From Candidatus Spongiisociaceae bacterium (GTDB lineage: Bacteria; Actinomycetota; Acidimicrobiia; Spongiisociales; Spongiisociaceae), in contig OZ253564.1 in assembly GCA_965262915.1 (NCBI GenBank), positions 4,704,001 to 4,768,000 on the forward strand: a stretch of DNA of 64,000 nt, read 5' to 3'. Shown here one piece after another: positions 14,654 through 51,036 of the stretch (positions are counted from its first letter, which is position 1; each line of letters opens with the position of its first letter). The translations under genes and the position numbers were made by a program. The notes beneath the pieces are model-generated. The model was not told the origin of the DNA. It worked only from the letters and a program-made list of their open reading frames with translations, and ran no database searches.

Positions 14654-16969
14654 TCACTCATCCAGGGCCGCTAGCTCCGGAGGGTCGAACGCACCATGCA
14701 CAGGGACTTCTCCGTGCCACTTCTCGAGACGGACGAGGCAGGTGTGCGCGGCAGGTCCCTGGGCGAGGCTCGAAGTCCCCAGGTCGGAGGTGAGGATGTT
14801 CGGGTTTCCGTGAAGGCAAGTACCTTCGAGGTCCGGATCCGCCCCGGGTGCGTACCAGGCGCCCGTCGCCAACTGTACGACACCCTGGCGGACTCGATCG
14901 GTAACCGAGGCGCCCGCCAGGCACGCACCTCGCGAGTTCCACACACGCACCACATCACCGGAGACGATCCGGCGCAGGGCCGCGTCAGCTGGATGGATCC
15001 GGATCGCTTCGAGCCCGGAGACCTTGCCGCTCCGGCTCGTGGAGCCATGGTCCCACTGGCTGTGCAACCGGGTGCGCGGCTGGTTCGAGATGAGATGCAG
15101 GGCCGCTTCGTCGTCCGTCCCGCCCAGCCACTCCCTCGGCGCCATCCAGGCCGGACGGGGCGGGCAGTCCTCGTATCCGAATCCGGCAATGGTGTGCGAG
15201 TACAACTCGATCTTGCCGGACGGTGTGGCCAGTGGATGCGCATCGGGATCCTCGCGGAAGTCCTCCAGCAACACCCGCTTGGGTTCTCCCCCGGGATACC
15301 GCCGGTCCAGGAACCCTGCCTGCCAGAACTCCTCGAAGGTCGGGAGGCCCGGTTCGCGTCTGAGCAACTGCTCGTATAGATGCCGCACCCATTGGTCGGC
15401 GGTCCTTCCCTCGGAGAAGCGTTCGCCCTCGCCCAGCCGCTCCGCCAGCTGCCCGAATATCCCGTAATCGTTCCTGGCGCCACCGACCGGCTCGATGGCC
15501 TGCTGCATCGCAAAGACGTGGTTGTCGGTAGGAGCGCCCCCGATGTCGTTGCGTTCGAGCGGGGTGGTGGAGGGGAGGACGACATCGGCATGTTTGGCCG
15601 TCGCCGTCCAGAAGGGTTCGTTGACGACCACCGTGTCGGGGTGCTGCCACGCACGTCGCAGGCGGTTGAGGTCCTGGTGATGATGGAACGGGTTGCCTCC
15701 GGCCCAGTAGACCAGGCGGATGTCGGGATAGACGTAGGTGCCACCGTCATAGGTGAACTCGTCGCCGGGGTGTGCCAGCATGTCGGCTATGCGAGCCACG
15801 GGGATGAACGAGGCGACCGACCACCGGCCCCGGTTGAGGAAGGGAAGCCACGAGTTGCCGGAGCCGTTTCCTACGGAAGCCACCGCTCCGTATCCGATGC
15901 CGAGACCGCCCCCGGGGAGGCCGATCTGCCCGATTGCCGCGGCCAGGGCGATAGCCGCCGTCCAGATCACGTGCTCGCCGTGGTGCGAACGCTGCAACGA
16001 CCAGCTGACGTTGATCATCGACCGCCGCTCGACCATCGATCTGGCCAGGGATCGGATCTCGGCGGGGCGGATCGTGGTGATCGGGGAGGCCCATTCGGCG
16101 TCCTTAGCCACGCCGTCCTCGGCGCCGGTGACGTAGGCCGCCAGCGAATCCCACCCCGTGCAGTACCTGTCGACGAAGGCACGGTCGTAGGAGCCTTCCG
16201 TGATCAGCGTATGCATGAGAGCCAGCATCAGAGCCGTGTCGGTGCCGGGTCGGATCGGCAGCCAGACCGCCCGTAGCGAACCGCCCAGGTCGTCCGCGAT
16301 CGGTGACACATTGACGAAGCGGGTACCGCTCTCCGCCCACCGGCCCAGCCAGCCACGGAGCTCGTGCCGACCGACACCGCCGTGGTCGACCTGGCTGTTC
16401 TTGAGGGGGATCCCGCCGAAGGCAACCACTAGTTCGGTGTTGTCGGCGATCACATCCCAGGACGTGTGGGCGTTCTGGAAGCGCCACCACCCCATACCGA
16501 GTACGTGAGGCAGGATGACCTCGGCTGCGGCAAGACTGTAGGTGTTGACGGACCGCGTGTATCCGCCGATCGAGTTCATGAACCGATGCAGCTGGGTGCG
16601 TGCGTGGTGGAACCGTCCCGCGCTGGCCCAACCGTACGACCCGGCATAGATCGCTTGGTTCCCGTAGACACTTCGCACACGGTCGAGTTCGGCAGCCACC
16701 AGGTCGAGGACCCGGTCCCATCCGACCTAGACGAACCGCTCCCGCCCCCGCAGCTCCGGTGCGGTTCCGGGTCCTCCTTCGAGCCAGCTCTCCCTGACCG
16801 ACGGCATACGAACCCGAGCCCGTCCGACATCGACCATGGAGTACCCGATCGGGGATGGATCGGGATCGTCCCGAAACGGTCGCACCGCCCGGATCGAACC
16901 GCCCGACGATTCCACCTCGTAGGCACCCCAGTGAGTCAGAGTGAGGCTGGACGTCCCCTGATCGTTCAC
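14654..16969 (-). pseudogene. BisC/TorA/DMSO-reductase-family molybdopterin oxidoreductase with one in-frame TAG (16727-16729)
   Basis: ORFs 16727..16969 (THWGAY...RGRERFV) and 14654..16699 are in the same frame, joined as FV*VGWDRVLDLVAAEL. Motifs GSYGWASAGRFH, NTYS, WAGGNPFHHHQD, RLHSQ. Confidence 0.8.
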
Positions 16970-17267
16970 AACGCCGTCCTTCGGTAGGGGGAGACCATCC
17001 TACGGCGCGCGGCTTTCGGACCCTCGAAGACCGGGCCACCGATACGCTTCGGGGAAGCCTCGGGGCCACACGAGTCGAGGAGGCTGGTCAACAACCCCCG
17101 GTTGGCCCGACGGTCAATGACAGAGGGCACGTCAGCGGACCACGAGCCAACCATTTACCCGTTCATGAGCACCGTCGCGGGGGGAGCCGAGCTGTTGCTA
17201 ACGTTGCCCGGCAACCTTCGGTCCGGTCCGGCGAGGGTTGCTGCAAGGGAACCGGGGATTGACGATC

Positions 17268-18321: not shown

Positions 18322-19446
18322 ATGCACCACGAGACCTTGGCCACCGACTTGGACGATCTCATCGCGGAGATGCCCAAGGCCGAACTGCACGTGCACCTGG
18401 AAGGAACCCTCCGGCCGTCGACAGCTGTCACGCTGGCCCGGCGCCACGGTCTTGTCGACACGCTACCCACTATTGATCCGGTGAAGCTCGCCGACTGGTT
18501 CGAGTTCAAAGACTTCAAGGACTTCATACGGGTGATAAGGGCCATCCAGAACCTGATCCGTACGGCGGATGACTTCGCCTTGGTCGCTTACCAGGCCGGG
18601 GCCGATATGGCAGAGCAGAACATCCGCTACCGCGAGCTGACGGTCTCTCCGTACAACCACACCCACATCTTCGACAAAGGGCTGTCCATAGGAGACATCC
18701 TCGGTGGTCTGGATCAAGGGCGAGACAGCGCCCGAGCAGACTTCGGCGTGGAGATCCGATGGGTGTTCGACATCTCCCGGAACTTCAGCTTCTCCGGCCC
18801 GGATGGGACCTACGATCCAGAGCCGGCGGAGGTAACCCTGCGCTACGGCCTGGCCGGGCAGGAGCACGGGGTGATCGGGCTGGGCATCGGAGGCGACGAG
18901 GAGGGGCGACCGCCTGAGCCCTTCGCCCATGCCTTCCGGGAGGCGAAACGGGCCGGCCTCAAGAGCCTCCCCCATGCCGGCGAGTCTCTCAGACCGTGGG
19001 GAGCGGACCACGTTCGAGGGTCGATCGACGTGCTGGAGGCGGACCGCATCGGGCATGGCGTAGGGGCAATCCGGGATCCGCACCTCCTCTCGGTCTTGGC
19101 AGACCGGGCCATACCCCTCGAGGTATGCCCCACCAGCAACCTGAGAACCCGCGTCTGCGAACGCACCGCCCTGCATCCGTTCCCGCACCTCGACGGGATG
19201 GGACTGACGCTTACGGTCAACAGCGACGATCCCCCTTTGTTCGGAACCACGCTCAACGACGAGTACCGGCTCCTGGCGACCGAGTTCTGCTACGGAGCGA
19301 CCGACCTGGCTCGGATCGCCCGCAATGCCTTCAGCGCCGCCATGTGCGAGGCGGAACTCCGGTCGTCCCTCCTCCAAGAGTTCGACACCTGGGCCCGTTC
19401 ACAGAACACTCCGAACCCGGACCCCCGGCCCCACCCCATCTCTTGA
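18322..19446 (+). CDS. add: Adenosine/adenine deaminase
   Basis: PKAELHVHLEG, PHAGE, DRIGHG, EVCPTSN, VNSDDP. Confidence 0.93.
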   Translation: MHHETLATDLDDLIAEMPKAELHVHLEGTLRPSTAVTLARRHGLVDTLPTIDPVKLADWFEFKDFKDFIRVIRAIQNLIRTADDFALVAYQAGADMAEQNIRYRELTVSPYNHTHIFDKGLSIGDILGGLDQGRDSARADFGVEIRWVFDISRNFSFSGPDGTYDPEPAEVTLRYGLAGQEHGVIGLGIGGDEEGRPPEPFAHAFREAKRAGLKSLPHAGESLRPWGADHVRGSIDVLEADRIGHGVGAIRDPHLLSVLADRAIPLEVCPTSNLRTRVCERTALHPFPHLDGMGLTLTVNSDDPPLFGTTLNDEYRLLATEFCYGATDLARIARNAFSAAMCEAELRSSLLQEFDTWARSQNTPNPDPRPHPIS

Positions 19447-19544: not shown

Positions 19545-20765
19545 CTACCGGGCCACACCCACACGAGTAGTTGAATCGGCCTCCTGACTTGTCAGGCGAG
19601 CCGTGTCGCGTGCGATGAGGGACTCCTCATCGGTCGGGATCACCCAGATGTCTATGGGACTGCTGCCGGTGGAGATGCGCCTCTCCCCTTCGCCCCGGTT
19701 CCGGGAGGGCTCGACCACCAGACCCATGCTCTCCAGACCGGTCAGGATGAGTTCGCGGGCCTCGTGGCTGTTCTCCCCGATGCCACCGGCGAAGACCACC
19801 GCGTCGCAAGGCGCCACCTGTACCAAGAAGGCCCCGAGATACCGGCGCACCCTATGCGCGAAGGCCTCCACCGCCAGCGTGGCGGGCGGATCGCCGGCCC
19901 GGGCACGGTCGGCAACCTGCCGGAAGTCAGGGGAGATCCCGCTCAGACCCAGCAGGCCTCCCTCCCGCTCCAAACCGCGGCGGATCTCGGCCGCCGGAAG
20001 TCCCGCGTCCAGCAAATGGAACACCACCGCCGGATCGATATCGCCGCTGCGGGTCCCCATTACCAGTCCCTCCAAGGGCGTCATGCCCATGGAGGTATCG
20101 ACCGCGTGGCCGTCCCGGACCGCGCACGCGGAGGCCCCCGCGCCCAGATGGAGAGTCACCAGGTTGGGTCGGGGCTTGTCCAGCAGCCCGGAGGCCCGCT
20201 CAACCAGGTACCGGTGGCTGATCCCGTGGAAGCCGTAGCGTCGCACCCCGAAGTCCCGCCACCAGCGGGTGGGGACCGCATACCTGTAGGCGTGGGGAGG
20301 GAGCGTGGAGAAGAAAGCAGTGTCGAAGACGGCCACCCCCACCGCTCCGGGTAGGAGCTCCCGAGCGGCCCGGATACCCGCCAGGTTGGCCGGGTTGTGG
20401 AGCGGGGCAAGGGCCTCCAGGGACTCGATAGCCTCGATGACCGAGCGATCGATCACCACAGACGCCGAGAAGCGGTCGCCTCCGTGCACGACCCGGTGGC
20501 CCACCCCCACAATGTCAGCCGGGTCGTTGATCGGAGGGGGCGACCCCCACTCCATCAGGACGTTGACGATCCGAGCCACGCCCTGCCGGTAGTCGGCAAC
20601 CTTTTTCTCGACCGTGGTCTTCCGATCACCCACGTGGTGGAGATGTCTCGGCCGATCCCCACCTACGCCCTCGATGATCCCGCCCGCCAGGGTGTCTCCC
20701 ACTCCCCGTCCGTACAGCTTGTACTTGATGGACGAGCTGCCGCAGTTGATCACCAGTATCCGCAT
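19545..20765 (-). CDS. ackA: Acetate kinase
   Basis: VINCGSSSIKY, GHRVVHGG, LAPLHNP, RYGFHGISH, DTSMGMTPLEG, GGIGENS, IPTDEE. RBS AAGGAG precedes ATG 20765. Confidence 0.95.
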   Translation of the reverse strand: MRILVINCGSSSIKYKLYGRGVGDTLAGGIIEGVGGDRPRHLHHVGDRKTTVEKKVADYRQGVARIVNVLMEWGSPPPINDPADIVGVGHRVVHGGDRFSASVVIDRSVIEAIESLEALAPLHNPANLAGIRAARELLPGAVGVAVFDTAFFSTLPPHAYRYAVPTRWWRDFGVRRYGFHGISHRYLVERASGLLDKPRPNLVTLHLGAGASACAVRDGHAVDTSMGMTPLEGLVMGTRSGDIDPAVVFHLLDAGLPAAEIRRGLEREGGLLGLSGISPDFRQVADRARAGDPPATLAVEAFAHRVRRYLGAFLVQVAPCDAVVFAGGIGENSHEARELILTGLESMGLVVEPSRNRGEGERRISTGSSPIDIWVIPTDEESLIARDTARLTSQEADSTTRVGVAR

Positions 20766-20814
20766 GAGCTCCTTGCGGGTATCCACCAAGAGCAAAGCCG
20801 CTATACCGCTTTGT

Positions 20815-21327
20815 TCAGACCGTCAGCGCTCCGAGGATCTCGGGAAAGGCCGCCTCGGCGAGAGCCCGCATCTCCTCGTCGGTACGGTCCTGAATCGGAT
20901 GGGTGGTGAACACCCGGCGGGGGTGCATTCCCAGGGCCCGACCCTGGGCGTCTGCGGCCTGCACGAAGCGGTCCGACGCCACGAAGACACCCGGCAGGCC
21001 CCGGTCTTCCAGATCCACTATGTCGTGCACACTGCACGACGCGCAGGATCCTCAGTCGGCCAGGGCTTCGATCACCGCCCCGCATTCGGCGGCGATCTGC
21101 CGGCGCAAGTCGAGCGGCGCCGGTTTGGAGAAAGTAGGTTTGCGGTAGTGTCGCACCGCCACCCCCCTCTCGGCGAATAGCTCGCTCAACCTCCCGATGA
21201 ACACGTCCCCCCGCGGTTTGGAGATGTCCAGCAGGGCAACGGTACCGTGGGCGAGGTCGGCGAACCGGGGACCCAGACCCCGTTCCTGGGTGGTTCTTTC
21301 GCTTGTCGGGTCCAGCAATGTCGTCAT
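20815..21327 (-). CDS. UGSC-motif selenoprotein (Sec at TGA 21052-21054), 170 aa
   Basis: ORFs 21052..21327 and 20815..21030 are in frame and read IEALAD-TGA-GSCASCSVHD. A SECIS-like hairpin lies 11 nt 3' of the UGA. Confidence 0.88.
21022..21040 (-). promoter_or_regulatory. Bacterial SECIS-like hairpin
   Basis: GTCGTGCA-GTG-TGCACGAC: perfect 8-bp stem with a G-initiated loop, starting 11 nt after the UGA. Confidence 0.75.
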
Positions 21328-21336
21328 CGGTCACCC

Positions 21337-22779
21337 CTAACGGTCGATCGCCACGGTGGTCATCTCCGAACTGGCCCTACCACCGATCCAGCCTGAGATT
21401 ACCGCCGAGAATCCCCCGGCATCCCCTCCTGCGTGTACGAACCAGAGCCCTTCGGGACCGAACTTCGGAATCTCCTTCTTCTTGTCCGCCAACCAGCTCG
21501 GCAGGCCTTCGGCTACGCCGCCCGCGCCGGCCACCATCTCGGAGGTTGGGAGGGTTAGCAGGGAGCGTATCTCCCGGCGGAGGCGGGCCTTCGTCCATCC
21601 TGCCTCCCGGAACACCCGGGCGTGTTCGGGGGAGACCACAACTATCGCCTCGGCCATTCCGGCCAGCTTCGGATGCCCGACCATGCGCAGCTGCAGAGCG
21701 AAGGTTCTCGCCAGCGACTCGGGAGTGCGGGACTTCTGGTCGATGATCTCGATCGGTCCGTGCCCGGCGAACAGCGTCACCGTGGAGTCCCCGGGCGAGA
21801 AGCCCCGTTCGACCGCTAGCGACTCCCACGGGGAGTCCTCCTCACCCTCGGGGAAGCAGAACGAGAGCTTGCTCGGGCTGCCGAACGTCGCCTGATCCAC
21901 TCCTCCCGGTCGGGCTCCACCGACGTTGCGGACCACCAGGTTGAGAGCCCGTCCGATGGTCAGGTTGGCCCGGTTGCCCTGACCGAGCACGTTGATCCCC
22001 GAGTTCATCCCGATCTGCCCTCGTACCGGCCCGTTGACGATCAGCACCGGCCCCGAGAAATAGGTGGTGGCCGAAACCCCGTGGATGTTGAAACGGCTCC
22101 CGGCCGCCGCCTCCACCGCCGCCAGCACCACCGGCAGGTATTCGGGCAGGCACCCTGCCATCACCGCGTTGATCGCCACCTTCTCCACGGTGCATTCCAC
22201 CAAGTCCGTAGGGATTATGCAGAGCACCTGGTCGGGAGGAAGATCGGTGCCCTCCAGCATCCTCGCCACCCGCTCCTCGGTGGGAGGGGTAACGGGGAGA
22301 CCATCCGTCCATCCCCGGGCGAAGGCAGCCTCGACCGGATCTTCTGAGGTTCCCAGATCCACTCTCCGTGACGACATAGGGTATGGCGAGTGGCGTCGGA
22401 GGAGCCTTTCGTAAGTGTCCGGCAGCATGGTGTCCGAACCGCACCCGGGACGCTGATCAGGAAGGCCCTGGCCCAAACCGGTAACTGCCGCCACCCGTTC
22501 CCATCCGGTCCTGTGCCACCCGGCCTGCTGATCGACCGCGTCCCCACCCTCGATCCGGTAGATGGTGGGGGTCGTCTCGGTACCCAGATGCCACGAGATG
22601 TCCAGTTCCCGGTCGTGGATCACGTCGAATCCCTCGGGGAAGCCGGCCCGATCCTGCGAAACCAGTGCTAGGGATTCCTCCCCTGCGGCAAGTCGGGCCA
22701 GCGCGGGCACCACCAAGTGGCATGTCTCGCAATCGTCCTTGACAACCACCAGCAGTCCGTCAGCAATAGGCAGGCTCAT
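21337..22779 (-). CDS. Thioredoxin-like (CxxC) domain fused to an uncharacterised conserved domain; partner of the UGSC protein
   Basis: KDDCETC and TPT (cis-Pro-like) in the N-terminal domain, linker PGCGS, then GWTDGLPVTPPT and VEKVAINAVMAGC. Ends 9 nt before the selenoprotein start. Confidence 0.75.
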   Translation of the reverse strand: MSLPIADGLLVVVKDDCETCHLVVPALARLAAGEESLALVSQDRAGFPEGFDVIHDRELDISWHLGTETTPTIYRIEGGDAVDQQAGWHRTGWERVAAVTGLGQGLPDQRPGCGSDTMLPDTYERLLRRHSPYPMSSRRVDLGTSEDPVEAAFARGWTDGLPVTPPTEERVARMLEGTDLPPDQVLCIIPTDLVECTVEKVAINAVMAGCLPEYLPVVLAAVEAAAGSRFNIHGVSATTYFSGPVLIVNGPVRGQIGMNSGINVLGQGNRANLTIGRALNLVVRNVGGARPGGVDQATFGSPSKLSFCFPEGEEDSPWESLAVERGFSPGDSTVTLFAGHGPIEIIDQKSRTPESLARTFALQLRMVGHPKLAGMAEAIVVVSPEHARVFREAGWTKARLRREIRSLLTLPTSEMVAGAGGVAEGLPSWLADKKKEIPKFGPEGLWFVHAGGDAGGFSAVISGWIGGRASSEMTTVAIDR

Positions 22780-22901
22780 AGGTCGCCGGTCCTCCCCGGG
22801 TTGGTCATCTCAAAGATAGTCATCCAACATCAAAGTGCATGCACCCTCTCGAACATCGGGCACCCCAAGCAGGACAGGCTCGTGATGCTATGATATCACT
22901 C

Positions 22902-23150
22902 ATGAGGACCATAATCACACTTCCGGATCATATGCACGCCGACGCCAAGCGGCGAGCTGCCGCGCTTGGAATCAGCTTCGCGGAGTTCGCCCGCCGCCTC
23001 TTCGAGAAAGAACTCGCCACAGCCGTACCACAAGGCGATATCGACTCGATATGCGGCATGGTAGAAGGAACACCCTTCGACATGGCAAGCGACGGAAGAC
23101 GGATGATCGAAGAGGCCACCATCAGTCTCATCTCCGATAGGCGTGGCTGA
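22902..23150 (+). CDS. Ribbon-helix-helix (CopG/VapB-type) antitoxin
   Basis: MRTIITLPD..AKRRAAALGISFAEFARR. TGCTATGAT extended -10 lies 7 nt before the ATG. Confidence 0.8.
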   Translation: MRTIITLPDHMHADAKRRAAALGISFAEFARRLFEKELATAVPQGDIDSICGMVEGTPFDMASDGRRMIEEATISLISDRRG

Positions 23151-23153
23151 GGG

Positions 23154-23573
23154 GTGGCTTATTCGTACGTAGACACGTCGGCATGGGTTTCCATGGCGGA
23201 CAGGGCGGAGGCGTCCCACCAGCGCGTCGCGACCGCGTTGCGCGCCCGTCGAGGCCGTCTCGTCACCAGCGACCACGTACTCCACGAGACATGGACCTTC
23301 ATGCGCAACCGGCACGGCTGGCAGGCAGCGGAGCAACTCGTCACCGGCATCCGGGGTGGTATCGCGCGGATCGAGGTCTCCGGAGTGGCCGACCTCGAAG
23401 CCGCGGCCACGATCGGAACCATCTTCGCCGACCAGGACTTCTCCCTGTCGGACCGCACTAGCTGGGCCGTGATGGAGAGGCTAGGAATCCACGACGCAAT
23501 ATCCCTGGACAGAGACTTCCACATCTACCGTTTCGGTCCCGGCCGACGCCGCTACTTTACCGTTTCACCCTGA
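23154..23573 (+). CDS. vapC: VapC PIN-domain toxin
   Basis: YVDTSAW, TSDHVLHET, FSLSDRTS, SLDRDF. Confidence 0.9.
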   Translation: MAYSYVDTSAWVSMADRAEASHQRVATALRARRGRLVTSDHVLHETWTFMRNRHGWQAAEQLVTGIRGGIARIEVSGVADLEAAATIGTIFADQDFSLSDRTSWAVMERLGIHDAISLDRDFHIYRFGPGRRRYFTVSP

Positions 23574-23648: not shown

Positions 23649-26600
23649 TCAACGCGAAGGCGCGCCCGTCCGGACCGGCTCCGAAGCGCCGTCGGGGAGA
23701 GCAGGCTTTCCACACCGGACCCGCTGCGTCGTGGGGTCAATCCGACGATGGCGCACTTCGAGGATCGGGAGTTCCCAGGAGGGTACGACGATCCGCTCCC
23801 GGAATCCGGGCTTGCAGTCCTCCTTCCGGCGGAGCACTATCGCCAGGACACGGACTTCACCCACGCCCCGCATCTGTGCCCGTTGCCATGCCTTCGCAGC
23901 TGTTCTGGACAACCTCGCCACCTCGATACCGGTGTCATCGAGTACCCTCACCTGCCCGTCCTGGCCGGGCTGCAACTTGAGCGTATCCCCCGTACGCATG
24001 CGGGCCAGGGACCGGTGGATCGGATTCTTCTCTCCTTTCCTGCCTGCAAAGTCCAGGAACAGATCCCCCATCCCGAGGATCGTGTACGAGTGCTCGGCGT
24101 ACCTAGCCGTACCACTCCCGGCTACCCCCACCCTTCGGCGAATCACACCCGGCCCACACAGTTCGTCCAGATACGGAATCGGATCGTCCCTCCGACTGAG
24201 GAGGGTGAGGGTCTCCCGAGCACGGGTCATCGCCACGTAGTAGAGGCGTCGCTCCGCCTCCGACGAGTCTCGCTGTCCCGACCCCTTCCGCCATTCGCCT
24301 CCCAGTACCATGACATGGTGGAACTCGAGGCCCTTGGCGGAGTGGACGGTGCCGACCAAGACCCCATCACCAACAATGTGCGATCTCACGTGATCGGCCA
24401 GTGCCTGGTGAATAGCTTCGGCAACCTCGGTGGCTGCACACGGATGGGCACCGGTGCCCCCCTCAACTTCCTTGAGCACGCGTCGGGCCATCGCCGTCCA
24501 GAGCGACTCTGCACCGCAGACCTGTCCGAGCCGTGTTCTGAGTTCCGGCACGGAGATGTCCTTGGCTCGAAGCTCGTCCAGATGATCGAGCAGCAGTCTG
24601 AACTCCCGGATGCGACCTAACCAAGGCAGCCCGTCCGTGATCGCCCGGCGAACGGGAACGCCCTTCATCTCCAGGAATGCGCGTACGACCGCCACCTGCT
24701 TGTGGGTTCTGGCCAGGACGGCGAAGTCGTGCCAGTCCGGTGCCCGATCCAGCTTGCGCAGACGCTCGATCTCGGCAAGCACACGCGCTACCTCGGCACC
24801 CGCATCCCCCACATCGAGTAACAGGACATGGCCCCTGGCTTCAGGATCCAATGACTGCCACCTCCCGCCGGGAGGGTCGTCAGAGCGACGAAGATCTATC
24901 CGGATCGGGTGGTCGGTCTTCATCCGCTCCCGGTTGTTCCGGATCAGACCGTTCGAAACATCGATGATGTGCCTGGTGGAGCGATAGTTGTCGACCAGGT
25001 AGTGCCGCTCGGCGTCGAAGTCCTCCTCGAAGCGGCGCAGGAAACGTACGCTGGCCCCGCGCCACTCGTAGATACTCTGGTCGTCATCGCCTACCGCGAG
25101 GATGGCTGCGAAGCGATCCTCGTCATCATCGCTCCCCGCCCGCCGAGCGATATGGGTGATCATCTCGTACTGTTTCGAGTCGATGTCCTGGTACTCGTCG
25201 ACCAGCACGTACTCGAATCCCAAGAGGAGGCGATCCCGCAGCTCGTCGGGGGCGACCCCTACCGTCTGCTCCTTACCCCTGAGGCGTCGGTTGGCGTCTT
25301 CAATGATCGCGTCGAAGTCGATCTGCTCCCGGTCGCCTGCTTCGAGTCGCACCGCTGCCACCGACCGCTCGGTCAGCCGCAGGGCCAGGGAGTGGTAGGT
25401 GTGGACCGCGACCTGCCGTGCCAGATCACCCACTAGTAGACGCAGCCGGAGCCGTAACTCGTGCATGGCGGACCGGTTGAAACAGATCACCAGGATGCTC
25501 TGCGGGCGGATGCGCTCCACCCTGAGCAGGTAGGCGCAGCGATGCACCACCACCCTCGTCTTGCCCGATCCCGGACCGGCCAGCACCATCACGTTGCGTT
25601 CCTTCGGGGCGGTCACGATCCGTTCCTGCGCGTCGTTGCCGAGGCTCTCCACGATCTCGGCGTAGCTCGCTCTCGAGGTGGCCCGGTTGAGTGTTTCCCG
25701 AGCGCCCTTGAAGTAGCGCCGTTTGAACCCCTCCGTGGACATCTTGAAGTAGTCGTCCACGTACGGGCGAGCCGCGCCATCCAAGCTGTCCTGCGCTTCC
25801 TTCACGTACCGTCCGATAGCGTGGATCTGGAATATCCGCCCCTTGTAGTGATCCTGGAGTGGGCGGTAGTGGGAATTGCCGTAACGCTTGCCCTTCGCCT
25901 CCTCCCGCACGCGGATCGTCATGGCCTGGCGGAAGATCGCCAGCCCGTGCTGGAGCCGGATGACATGGTGCTCGTCCAGGAACAGGAGGGTCTTCTCGAT
26001 CAGGTCAAACGGGTCGGCGAGACGCGACGCAAGCCCGATGCGTCCGTCTATGGCTTTCCCGAGATCCTCCAGAGAGAACAGTATGAGCCGCTCGCCGACC
26101 AGTTTCTGCTCGTCGGCCTTCCTACCAAGCGTTTCGAGAATCACCCGGCCCACCTCGGTCCGCAACTCCAGCAACTCCCGCAGTTCATCCCAGCCGACCT
26201 GCACCCCGAGACGTATGCCGGAGCGTCCCTCACTCCTCAGGATGACCGGCGCCTGCCTACCTAGACCTTCCCGAGCCCAGCCCGCCAGCAGCTTCAGCAG
26301 GCTGTCGTTGATCAGGCGCACTCCCTGTACGCGCAGACGTTCCTGCAGGCGGGGGATGGAGATCTGTATCTCTTCACCGGAGCCACCGTCATGGTCTTGG
26401 GCGCGCAGCAGTTCCTGCAGTTTGGTCTGCGCCCCGTGGATCTCGTCCAACCGGTCCTGCGACTTGGTGGTCGTCTTGTGACGGATCCAGGCCGAGAAAT
26501 AGGTTCCGCTCTCCAGCAGTCCCGCCCGGGACATCTCGTAGAGTGTGCGGAAAATCTCCCGGGTGGCCATACGGTTGAGCCCTGCCGCATCGTCCCCGAA

Positions 26601-29012
26601 TCGGGTACGGAGATGCCAGAACAGCGACTTGAAGGAGCGCAGGGATGCGATCTGGTCGATGTCGATCCCATCCCGCAGATCGGCGGTTTGAAGGAGGTCC
26701 AGAACCTCGAGCCACCGGCGGCGCATGCTCTTCGAAAGGTTCAGTCCATCCATCTTGACCTGCGCAGCTTCGATATCGGGAACCGCCGGCACCCCCTGGA
26801 AGATCTGGGTCCGGTTCTCGTCCCGCAGCACGAAGCGGGTCCGTTCGAGCCACGAGATGGCGACCTTCACCTTGGTGGCGGCAGTCCGATCCTCGGCATC
26901 GAACGAAGTATCTGTATCAGGCACCCGTAGGAGTTCGCGGGGCGCGACCACGATCTCGTCGATGTCCCTCCGGCGCACCCGGCGGATCGCCCTGAGTATC
27001 TGGGCGATGTCCCGCTTCGTGAGACGATCGCGGGAGGCCAGATCGAACTGCCTCTCGAGATCCCCTTTGGTGAAGAGCAGCACGCAGTGGGCAGGTTTGC
27101 CATCCCGTCCGGCCCTACCCGCCTCCTGGAGGTAGTTCTCGATGGACCCCGGTACGTCGGCATGCACCACGATCCGGACATCGTCCTTGTCGATGCCCAT
27201 ACCGAACGCGTTGGTGGCCACGATGACCGGCAGATCGCCCGAGATGAATGCGTCCTGGACCCGTTTCTTCTCGGGGGGATCGAGACCGGCATGGAAGTGT
27301 TCCGCCTCCCAACCCCGCTGCCGGAGCAGCGTGGCGAGTTCCTCGGTTCCCCTGCGGCTGGAGGCGTAGATGATCGCCGCGCTCCGGGCGGGGTTCCCGA
27401 TTCGATCCGCCAGCAGTTCGTCGATTCGCGCCGCCTTGCGGGAGGTCGGTATCTCCTCGACCGAATAGTGAAGGTTGTCCCGGTCGAGGCGATCGCCGGC
27501 GATCTGCTCGATTTCCTGGCCGAGTTCCTCGCCAAAGTGCCCGACGATCTCCTCGCGCACATCCAACCTCGCGGTCGCGGTGAAGCAGGCCACCGGCGCG
27601 ATGTCGACGCCTTCCCGCTTTGAGAACTCCCGGATGAATCGGGCTGCGTAGAGGTAGTCGGGGCGGAAATCGTGACCCCATTTGGAGATGCAATGGGCCT
27701 CGTCGAACACCCAGGCCGCTATCTCGCGCTGCCGGATGGCCCGTTCGAAGGACGTGTTACGCAGCTGCTCAGGCGAAACGTAGAGCAATGCGTAGCGTCC
27801 GAGCCTTGTTCCTTCGAGCACGTCCCGGCGCTCGGGCATGGTCTGGAGACCGTTCAAGGTGGCGGCAAGAGTCGGAGACTCCGTCCTGCGGTTGAGGTTG
27901 TCGACCTGATCCTTCATCAGCGCCTGCAGGGGCGATATCACCACGATCAGGGCGCCGGACTGCTCGTTTCGAAGGATCGCCGGTAACTGATAGCAGAGTG
28001 ACTTACCCCCACCGGTCGGCATGATGCCGAGGAGAGAGCGCCCCTCGATGACTTGGGTAACGATCCGCTGCTGAAGGCTTTCACCGTCAGCCGTCTTCGG
28101 AGCGTCACGGAAGCCGGGGAAGCCAAAATACTTCTTGAGCTTGTCGTCCAGGTTGTGGTGCTTGGAGCAGTAGACGCACTTTGAGTTGCCGCACGGTGTT
28201 CCCCGCACAGCTCGGATAAGCCGGGATGCCGCCGGGAACTGGTGGTGTACCCATCTCGGTAGGACGGACTCCGTTCCCGCCACCATCGTCCAAGCAAGGG
28301 AATAGGCAATCGTGGGCCGGCTTTCGGCTCGATCGAGGAGCGGGGGAAGATGGCTCCGGATAGCATCCGGGCATGCCTTCTCCCCGGCGAAGTAGTGGAA
28401 GCCGCCCACGAGCCGATCGCGCTGCAACTCCCGACCGCCCAGGGCCTCGAGGAATAGGCCGGTTCCGTTCAGCTTGAGATCAGATGCCCCCTCCGCCTCA
28501 TCAGAATCGTCGAAACAACTCCTATAGAAGGACAGCAGCCAGCGGTTGTTGCTCTCCCATTCCTTGAGAAGGTCCCAGCATTCCTCGAGGAGCTGCCTGG
28601 TTAGTAGGCAGTCGGCGACCGGATCGCTTTGCTCCGCGCCGACGAGCTTGTAGTCCTTGACCAGACGGTGATAGGGACGCTGAGGCTTGGCAAGCGGCGC
28701 CAGGTAGAGCGTGTCCACCACCGGCAGATCGAGCAGCGTGGCTCCGCGCAGGCGGGCCTCGATGAGCGGCCGGTCATGGGCCACGATGTTGTGGCCCACC
28801 ACGAAGTCAGCACCCTCCCCGAAGGCGTTCAGCTCCCGGACGGCCTCGTCCGAGGATGTCGCATCAGGGATCTTCAACTTCCTGTCACCATGCAGCGCGC
28901 CGAGCAGCCTGATTGACCCATTCGCCCTCGCCTCCAAGTCGAGGATCAGGCACCTGTCAACGAATCGGCGCCAAGCCCGATCGGCAGCCTTAGGCGAGTT
29001 GCCGCCGGTCAT
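23649..29012 (-). CDS. 1787-aa fusion: DnaQ/RNase H-like exonuclease domain + RecQ (SF2) helicase + UvrD (SF1) helicase
   Basis: DLE..GHNIVAHD..VDTL; MPTGGGKSLCYQ, DEAHCISKWGHDFRPDY, ATNAFGMGID, QEAGRAGRDG; AGPGSGKT, VDEYQD, GDDDQSIY, NYRS, TVHSAKGLEF, YVAMTRA. Confidence 0.88.
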   Translation of the reverse strand: MTGGNSPKAADRAWRRFVDRCLILDLEARANGSIRLLGALHGDRKLKIPDATSSDEAVRELNAFGEGADFVVGHNIVAHDRPLIEARLRGATLLDLPVVDTLYLAPLAKPQRPYHRLVKDYKLVGAEQSDPVADCLLTRQLLEECWDLLKEWESNNRWLLSFYRSCFDDSDEAEGASDLKLNGTGLFLEALGGRELQRDRLVGGFHYFAGEKACPDAIRSHLPPLLDRAESRPTIAYSLAWTMVAGTESVLPRWVHHQFPAASRLIRAVRGTPCGNSKCVYCSKHHNLDDKLKKYFGFPGFRDAPKTADGESLQQRIVTQVIEGRSLLGIMPTGGGKSLCYQLPAILRNEQSGALIVVISPLQALMKDQVDNLNRRTESPTLAATLNGLQTMPERRDVLEGTRLGRYALLYVSPEQLRNTSFERAIRQREIAAWVFDEAHCISKWGHDFRPDYLYAARFIREFSKREGVDIAPVACFTATARLDVREEIVGHFGEELGQEIEQIAGDRLDRDNLHYSVEEIPTSRKAARIDELLADRIGNPARSAAIIYASSRRGTEELATLLRQRGWEAEHFHAGLDPPEKKRVQDAFISGDLPVIVATNAFGMGIDKDDVRIVVHADVPGSIENYLQEAGRAGRDGKPAHCVLLFTKGDLERQFDLASRDRLTKRDIAQILRAIRRVRRRDIDEIVVAPRELLRVPDTDTSFDAEDRTAATKVKVAISWLERTRFVLRDENRTQIFQGVPAVPDIEAAQVKMDGLNLSKSMRRRWLEVLDLLQTADLRDGIDIDQIASLRSFKSLFWHLRTRFGDDAAGLNRMATREIFRTLYEMSRAGLLESGTYFSAWIRHKTTTKSQDRLDEIHGAQTKLQELLRAQDHDGGSGEEIQISIPRLQERLRVQGVRLINDSLLKLLAGWAREGLGRQAPVILRSEGRSGIRLGVQVGWDELRELLELRTEVGRVILETLGRKADEQKLVGERLILFSLEDLGKAIDGRIGLASRLADPFDLIEKTLLFLDEHHVIRLQHGLAIFRQAMTIRVREEAKGKRYGNSHYRPLQDHYKGRIFQIHAIGRYVKEAQDSLDGAARPYVDDYFKMSTEGFKRRYFKGARETLNRATSRASYAEIVESLGNDAQERIVTAPKERNVMVLAGPGSGKTRVVVHRCAYLLRVERIRPQSILVICFNRSAMHELRLRLRLLVGDLARQVAVHTYHSLALRLTERSVAAVRLEAGDREQIDFDAIIEDANRRLRGKEQTVGVAPDELRDRLLLGFEYVLVDEYQDIDSKQYEMITHIARRAGSDDDEDRFAAILAVGDDDQSIYEWRGASVRFLRRFEEDFDAERHYLVDNYRSTRHIIDVSNGLIRNNRERMKTDHPIRIDLRRSDDPPGGRWQSLDPEARGHVLLLDVGDAGAEVARVLAEIERLRKLDRAPDWHDFAVLARTHKQVAVVRAFLEMKGVPVRRAITDGLPWLGRIREFRLLLDHLDELRAKDISVPELRTRLGQVCGAESLWTAMARRVLKEVEGGTGAHPCAATEVAEAIHQALADHVRSHIVGDGVLVGTVHSAKGLEFHHVMVLGGEWRKGSGQRDSSEAERRLYYVAMTRARETLTLLSRRDDPIPYLDELCGPGVIRRRVGVAGSGTARYAEHSYTILGMGDLFLDFAGRKGEKNPIHRSLARMRTGDTLKLQPGQDGQVRVLDDTGIEVARLSRTAAKAWQRAQMRGVGEVRVLAIVLRRKEDCKPGFRERIVVPSWELPILEVRHRRIDPTTQRVRCGKPALPDGASEPVRTGAPSR

Positions 29013-50912: not shown

Positions 50913-51036
50913 GGATATTGACGGTACCTCGAAACGGAGATGCCGATGAACCTGGTGTGGCCGGCCGGGCCCCGGCCGGGTTATGGGGGTTCCTCCCCCG
51001 TGCTGTCACCGGCGAGCTATTACGATCACTCCCAGG

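Follow-up and report, generated by a model that had tools for sequence, protein, structure and literature searches.

A UGSC-family selenoprotein gene with a SECIS-like hairpin beside a conserved thioredoxin-fold gene in a Candidatus Spongiisociaceae bacterium

The locus described here lies in a 64-kb stretch of DNA, the whole of which is referred to as the window. It corresponds to positions 4704001-4768000 of the genome of a Candidatus Spongiisociaceae bacterium, which is assembled as one contig of 5.06 Mb and is 96.4% complete. Three co-oriented genes follow one another on the minus strand (Table 1), encoding a 480-residue protein (here called the partner), a UGSC-family selenoprotein and an acetate kinase (ackA). 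The TAG stop of the partner gene (21339..21337) lies 9 nt before the ATG of the UGSC gene (21327..21325). No terminator-like site was found between the three genes, and one was found after ackA, at 19428..19411. The true start of ackA is likely the ATG at 20765 (M-R-I-L-V-I-N-C-G-S-S).

Table 1. Features of the UGSC locus, in positions of the window
Feature	Coordinates	Strand	Description	Basis
Partner gene (480 aa)	21337..22779	minus	thioredoxin-fold N-terminal domain and C-terminal domain of ~330 aa	AF2 model, adjacency
UGSC-family selenoprotein gene	20815..21327	minus	170 codons and TGA stop	NF041046, PF24696, AF2 model
Sec codon UGA (codon 92)	21052..21054	minus	motif D-U-G-S-C-A-S-C	
SECIS-like hairpin	21011..21051	minus	upper stem 21040..21033/21029..21022, loop GUG 21032..21030, lower helix	
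Acetate kinase gene (ackA)	19545..20795	minus	~50 nt downstream of the UGSC gene	TIGR00016 (425 bits), PF00871 (433.6 bits)

Under translation table 11, the UGSC gene appeared as two open reading frames in the same frame, 21327..21052 (91 amino acids) and 21030..20815 (71 amino acids), separated solely by the TGA at 21054..21052. With this TGA read as U, the stretch 21327..20818 gave 170 residues with a single internal UGA, in the context ...IEALAD-U-GSCASCSVHD..., followed by a terminal TGA at 20817..20815; the two fragments are therefore one frame of 170 amino acids, as an earlier note on this DNA had proposed. The read-through product passed both curated models of the UGSC family, namely, the NCBIfam equivalog model for "UGSC family (seleno)protein", NF041046 (141 bits, with the cut-off at 125, along profile positions 3-147 of 147), and Pfam PF24696 (also 141 bits, with the cut-off at 25, along positions 2-171 of 172), so that the family membership claimed in the same note was borne out. 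Among the profiles scanned, UGSC alone matched all 28 of the family members that were aligned. In this 28-sequence alignment, P7, C95 and D102 were invariant and U/C92, G93 and H101 nearly so; the third cysteine of the U-x-x-C-x-x-C stretch (C98) was variable in UGSC paralogues. Where the family carries Sec or Cys, at the head of the U-G-S-C motif, this gene has the UGA of codon 92, followed by G-S-C. The gene shares with the family this motif, its Sec/Cys alternation and full-length model matches, and no essential difference from the family was seen. It is thus a genuine, ordinarily built member of an already described selenoprotein family and not a new one.

The UGSC family has reportedly been described since the Sargasso Sea and GOS selenoproteome papers, part of the marine selenoproteome work of Zhang and Gladyshev. 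The earlier note had traced it to marine metagenomes, and this stands insofar as the family was described in marine selenoproteome work; in the excerpted text of the GOS paper, however, it is commoner in non-marine samples, and its function is given as unknown (PMC2398784). The same excerpts count 255 UGSC Sec sequences and 21 Cys homologues and describe a "UGSC/Unknown_1" fusion (PMC2398784). Elsewhere, UGSC was found in 26 organisms of a 5200-genome survey (PMC5029168, excerpted text) and was placed among the most abundant environmental selenoprotein families (PMC9312934 and PMC13188914, excerpted text); these reviews list it with NF041046 among families whose "functions remain largely uncharacterized". 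In these excerpts of the literature, no function is assigned to UGSC selenoproteins.

An AF2 model of the UGSC protein, made from 28 sequences, had a mean pLDDT of 92.6 and showed one flavodoxin-like alpha/beta domain that takes in both open reading frame pieces. Five beta-alpha units make up the model, and Sec92 falls between strand 84-90 and helix 93-108. Since this strand and this helix flank the UGA in one domain, the UGA lies inside a domain and not between genes. A PDB fold search with the model gave generic flavodoxin/Rossmann-like chains without any match that stood out (Foldseek TM <=0.52; VIA Z <=11.2), and the UGSC profile gave only chance matches to PDB sequences (E above 1). Thioredoxin was absent from the top 50 VIA matches and from the Foldseek matches listed. 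The thioredoxin-like fold suggested for UGSC in the GOS paper is not seen in this model, although a fold family absent from these listed matches may still be a relative.

To what extent the Sec column is kept was apparent from three sets of relatives. UGSC matches were present in 17 of 41 related genomes, and each of the 22 matches had exactly one in-frame TGA. A scan of one genome per species yielded at least 599 stretches encoding UGSC relatives, and in the best 80, which were examined, the Sec column was TGA without exception; most of these loci came from Acidimicrobiia/Ilumatobacteraceae metagenome-assembled genomes (MAGs), with others in Myxococcota, Chloroflexota, Alphaproteobacteria and Dormibacterota. 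In an evenly drawn sample of 401 genomes of the phylum, a UGSC relative was found in 24 genomes (27 matches), with TGA at the Sec column in 21 matches and a Cys codon (TGC or TGT) in 6. UGSC was concentrated in the class of the window, where it was present in 4 of 5 genomes of one bacterial family and in 10 of 12 of another. Every locus that was read in DNA therefore had TGA or a Cys codon at this column, in line with what the earlier note had expected of homologues and as befits a UGA that aligns with Cys in a bacterial selenoprotein gene. Among 23 full-length homologues from protein databases, the column was Cys in 18, W in two and R in two (one of them with a scrambled segment), and the remaining sequence was scrambled around the column. 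All four W/R exceptions have codon types one base from TGA, as far as protein records alone tell; they may be alternative-code gene calls, errors or real substitutions, which look the same in such records.

Up to two more UGSC paralogues were observed in relatives, with the motifs N-U-G-A-C-T-A-W, D-U-A-T-C-T-S-R and H-U-G-S-C-T-S-G, and each of these had its own adjoining partner-domain gene and its own hairpin at the same distance.

Of 120 protein-database matches listed, 96 were proteins of 94 to 126 amino acids that covered 51 to 53% of the UGSC query. All four of the half-length proteins that were inspected ended at ...EALAD, that is, at the UGA, which indicated that generic gene callers truncate the UGSC gene. 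In this sense the gene is hidden, as the earlier note had called it; the label does not hold for NCBIfam, which has a dedicated equivalog model.

The earlier note had described a perfect 8-bp stem with a GTG loop beginning exactly 11 nt after the TGA, and this structure was found as described. The TGA is followed by 11 nt (21051..21041), the 5' stem arm GUCGUGCA and the loop GUG, and the 3' arm UGCACGAC forms 8 of 8 Watson-Crick pairs with GUCGUGCA. RNAfold added a lower helix, GGAUCC/GGAUCU, between 21051..21046 and 21016..21011. The minimum free energy of the 66-nt hairpin region was -25.9 kcal/mol (z = -1.39), and 17 of 200 shuffled sequences folded at least as well; the folding energy of this region is, by itself, unremarkable. 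Perfect 8-bp stems with a 3-nt loop were rare, at three per strand in the 64-kb window, and one that starts 8 to 14 nt after a TGA was found for 2 of the 744 minus-strand TGAs (any frame). The sole TGA that has such a stem and also joins two open reading frame pieces is that of UGSC; the other cases of a stem after a TGA on this strand lie in the interior of a helicase gene, out of frame (28763/28809). On the plus strand, a perfect 8-bp GC hairpin (CCGGCCGG, loop GCC) was observed at 50947-50980, 11 nt after an intergenic TGA; it sits between two divergent genes and belongs to no pair of reading frames.

Conservation of pairing was measured in 100 aligned sequences, of which 97 were distinct, with 500 shuffles as controls. 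In the 97 distinct sequences, 98.1% of the cells of the upper stem were paired, and 4 of the 8 pairs had changes on both sides; the observed pairing, the double-change counts and the covariation score were reached by none of the 500 shuffles, and control stems slid along the alignment had 2 to 61% of cells paired. The main variable pair was G-C in 79 sequences, G-U in 13 and A-U in 5, with no mismatch. Combinations that keep the pairing included TCG/CAC, TCG/CAT and TCA/CAT, and TCA/CAC never occurred. In the phylum sample, all 8 stem pairs were present in 17 of the 21 TGA forms, and 3 to 5 of the 8 were present in each of the 6 Cys forms, which lack the hairpin despite encoding similar residues. 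The two paralogous types N-U-G-A-C-T-A-W-S-C-H-D and D-U-A-T-C-T-S-R-S-S-R-D, both from within this bacterial family, had stem sequences of their own at the same distance, with G-U-U loops. A search of Rfam with 20700..21400 found no SECIS family, the sole row being Xoo5 (E 3.8). The UGSC hairpin resembles the SECIS of E. coli fdhF in lying inside the coding sequence directly 3' of the UGA, in the 11-nt distance from the UGA to the stem and in an apical loop that opens with G-U, and it differs in its 3-nt loop (GUG), in having no predicted bulged U and in its family-specific sequence. A conserved stem-loop with G in the apical loop therefore follows the UGA, as in bacterial selenoprotein genes.

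Public sequencing data also covered the site. Two independent DNA runs, each from a different study, gave contigs with no other letter at 21052..21054, and one public assembly had G>A at 21022, by which the outer G-C pair becomes G-U. Contigs of many other organisms matched no more than 21022..21054, and their unmatched ends set in precisely at the UGA and at the end of the stem. In four public runs, depth rose 5- to 10-fold at 21022-21054, the block made up of the UGA and the hairpin, and likewise at 22121-22192, which holds the partner codons for ...EKVAINAVMAGC...; at 22121-22192, too, contigs of many other organisms matched just that stretch. Two RNA libraries of one study gave short contigs over 11 of 30 and 14 of 30 bins, which may be DNA carry-over, and none of the RNA-library contigs crossed the UGA or a gene junction with 31 nt to each side.

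The earlier note had made its proposal depend on whether the genome carries selA, selB, selD and a tRNA-Sec, and all four were present. The matches to selA (433.7 bits), to selB (333.2 bits), which adjoins selA, and to selD (390.3 bits) were over the cut-offs, and tRNA-Sec scored 77 bits, likewise over its cut-off, and was called SeC with anticodon tca by ARAGORN, such that the complete set needed by a bacterial selenoprotein gene is encoded. The selD gene (genome positions 4560939-4561865, minus strand) has one in-frame TGA and therefore probably encodes a selenoprotein itself. A second match to the tRNA-Sec model was found at genome positions 286455-286542 (48.3 bits, just over the gathering score of 47). 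In the 401-genome sample of the phylum, which for this tally includes 12 unpublished genomes, selA was over the cut-off in 260 genomes; the earlier statement that selenocysteine use is uncommon in Actinobacteria was not upheld.

These data bear on two other ways of reading the internal TGA. That it is read as another residue (e.g., Trp in a recoded code) or reflects an assembly error has next to no probability, even with W in two and R in two near database homologues at the Sec column, since the UGSC gene itself terminates with TGA and its orthologues end with TAA, TAG or TGA, contiguous homologues read in DNA carry Cys and not Trp, a tRNA-Sec with anticodon tca is present, and two independent DNA runs of different studies have the same letters at 21052..21054. 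Alternatively, the TGA might be a true stop and the locus a pseudogene or two small genes, of 91 amino acids and, from GTG 21030, of 71 amino acids. Translation table 11 does yield exactly these two products, and many half proteins of 94 to 126 amino acids stand in the public databases; yet TGA was kept at the column in 22 of 22 matches, in all of the best 80 loci and in 21 of 27 matches of the phylum sample, with Cys in the rest, the sequence was conserved both before and after the TGA, the two halves belong to one compact predicted domain, the hairpin behind the TGA is conserved as well and the genome has the full Sec machinery, so that a true stop is extremely unlikely. The reading of the in-frame UGA as selenocysteine, the SECIS hairpin and membership in the UGSC family are therefore supported.

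The partner protein consists of a thioredoxin fold with C17-E-T-C20, a linker with P-G-C113-G-S and a C-terminal domain with C210 in AVMAGC. It had no match in Pfam or NCBIfam. Its AF2 model had a pLDDT of 93.1, and residues 1-100 were superimposable on thioredoxins with a Z score of 9.7 and an rmsd of 1.9 A over 86 residues. This part, with its conserved C-x-x-C, is like the thioredoxin-fold oxidoreductases (Trx and the ResA/CcmG/DsbE type), from which the partner differs in the fused, conserved domain of about 330 amino acids, for which Pfam and NCBIfam offer no model and PDB sequences gave no match. When the whole-protein model was used as a query for fold searches of the PDB, matches fell on the thioredoxin domain alone, the C-terminal domain having none at E <= 0.001 in Foldseek, and the partner profile matched only designed repeat proteins among PDB sequences (E 0.055 and above). 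HMMER found 5735 relatives of the partner at E <= 0.001, counted as cluster representatives. As an observation on the linker (22441-22455, in the region of partner residues 109-113), its C-G-S resembles the U-G-S of UGSC; going by this likeness, the linker cysteine could be a shuttle or mimic cysteine.

A homologue of the partner adjoined UGSC in 123 of 126 loci from several phyla, including all six Cys-form loci; at the other 3, no partner was found within the DNA fetched. In the paralogous UGSC types, the gene order was reversed and the partner consisted of the C-terminal domain only. The cysteines of the partner were kept in nearly all aligned homologues (C17 in 98 of 98, C20 in 97 of 98, C113 in 98 of 98, C210 in 119 of 119 and C308 in 110 of 122). 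N-terminal additions varied among 37 partner homologues: the added piece was Redoxin/AhpC-TSA in 4, Thioredoxin_8 in 3 and a ferredoxin-thioredoxin-reductase beta domain in 1, and in 3 of the 37 a UGSC piece was fused to the partner homologue. Moreover, Atlas clusters of proteins of 417 to 429 amino acids had the partner domain with PF24696 in 16 to 41% of their members, which evidently corresponds to the "Unknown_1" fusion described in the GOS paper. The association with an "Unknown_1" domain and its fusion, as given in the excerpted text of that paper, are thus a further likeness to the family as described (PMC2398784). Because of the adjacency, the fusions, the conserved cysteines and the redox-type N-terminal additions, the pair looks like one functional unit fed by thiol-disulfide exchange; from the first three of these, we infer that UGSC and the partner work in partnership.

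Acetate kinase did not share this wider association. In orthologous loci of close relatives, ackA was adjacent in 9 of 13, and in the best 80 wider loci of the species-genome scan it was adjacent in 1, for which reason it was rejected as a general partner of UGSC; the co-oriented ackA is a lineage-local addition. A divergent gene for a metallo-beta-lactamase-fold protein (PF12706) lay upstream of the pair in 40 of the 80 wider loci and was absent from the window, and each of the remaining recurrent neighbours occurred in at most 18 of the 80. These recurrent neighbours of the wider loci look like lineage synteny.

Several other genes were observed around the locus. Beside the partner gene, 22839-23150 (plus strand) gave a weak ribbon-helix-helix match under the cut-off (E 0.0082), and a PIN-domain protein (43 bits) is encoded after it at 23154-23573 (plus strand), the two resembling a toxin-antitoxin pair divergent from the partner. 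Further along, 23649-29012 (minus strand) encodes a 1787-residue protein with DEAD/Helicase_C and UvrD-type helicase domains. On the other side, 14654-16699 (minus strand) encodes a molybdopterin oxidoreductase (PF00384 and PF01568; open reading frame of 681 amino acids), the frame of which continues upstream through 16700-17000 past one stop that is not TGA (...RERFV*VGWD...). The gene may be a pseudogene, or the stop may be due to sequencing error or to a wrongly set start.

In architecture, the locus resembles GrdB and PrdB (PF07355), of glycine/sarcosine/betaine reductase and D-proline reductase. GrdB has the motif U-x-x-C-x-x-C, acts with another, larger subunit and receives its electrons from thioredoxin. 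UGSC is alike in being a small Sec protein with U-x-x-C(-x-x-C), in having a second, larger protein beside it and in a likely thioredoxin feed. The partner is unlike the corresponding subunits in that it matched no GrdE/PrdA-type proprotein model that was searched, and the GRDB-family genes of this genome stand apart from the locus. Homology of UGSC to GrdB/PrdB was rejected: none of 28 UGSC members matched PF07355 at E <= 10, and hhalign of the UGSC profile against a GRDB-family protein of its own genome gave a probability of 1.4%. Five matches to the GRDB family (PF07355) were observed in the source genome; one of these loci (genome positions 3481920-3482959, minus strand) had two abutting matches that meet at model position 235, where a Sec site or a frameshift is possible.

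By analogy with glycine reductase, the partner, UGSC and acetate kinase might make up a reductase with acetyl phosphate as its product, from which ackA would harvest ATP. The three co-oriented genes without a terminator-like site between them, the adjacency of ackA in close relatives and the U-x-x-C-x-x-C spacing, which is like that of GrdB, would fit such an enzyme; set against these are the single occurrence of ackA in the 80 wider loci, the two failed comparisons just given, with PF07355 and with a GRDB-family protein, and the second cysteine of U-x-x-C-x-x-C, which is not conserved in the paralogues. We regard this proposal as very unlikely.

Alternatively, UGSC might be a general thiol oxidoreductase that works on its own, with the 480-residue protein no more than a syntenic neighbour. 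A U-x-x-C motif is typical of redox selenoproteins, and a redox role for UGSC is suggested in the excerpted text of the GOS paper (PMC2398784). Mere synteny, however, is at odds with an adjacency that spans several phyla (123 of 126 loci) and extends to paralogues with the reversed gene order, and natural fusions of UGSC and the partner exist, the gap here being 9 nt; a free-standing UGSC is accordingly unlikely.

We therefore favour, with a probability of roughly 0.9, the reading that this gene encodes a UGSC selenoprotein, that the hairpin and SelB direct selenocysteine insertion at UGA 92 and that Sec92 and Cys95 form a redox pair which works with the 480-residue neighbour. As in bacterial Sec decoding generally, SelB and Sec-tRNA(Sec) would bind the hairpin while the ribosome stands at the UGA, and Sec would be inserted; at the terminal UGA, which has no hairpin behind it, translation would terminate. 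Sec92 and the invariant Cys95, which sit where a helix of the predicted flavodoxin-like domain begins, would form a selenol/thiol redox pair, and UGSC would act together with the partner encoded 9 nt upstream. In the partner, catalysis or substrate binding would fall to the C-terminal domain with the invariant Cys210, and the C-x-x-C of the thioredoxin fold, possibly via the linker Cys113, would re-reduce the selenenylsulfide. We infer that UGSC and the partner are likely a thiol/selenol redox pair.

How far this extends to a particular enzyme is more tentative. UGSC and the partner may be the halves of an undescribed two-subunit selenoenzyme, which some organisms make as a fusion and in which electrons would pass from C17xxC20 to C113 and on to Sec92/Cys95 and Cys210, the domain of about 330 amino acids without a Pfam, NCBIfam or PDB relative being catalytic; we put this at a little under even odds. 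A narrower form of the two-subunit proposal, in which the enzyme of this Acidimicrobiia lineage would produce acetyl phosphate and be coupled to acetate kinase, seems decidedly improbable.

The selenoprotein call is in itself routine, and the value of the locus lies in the genomic context that it gives to UGSC. What is seen here is a compact, near-obligate module, made up of a thioredoxin domain, a putative catalytic domain and the UGSC gene, in a genome with the full Sec machinery. For bench work, the locus supplies a defined protein pair, together with a few cysteines and the selenocysteine as starting points.
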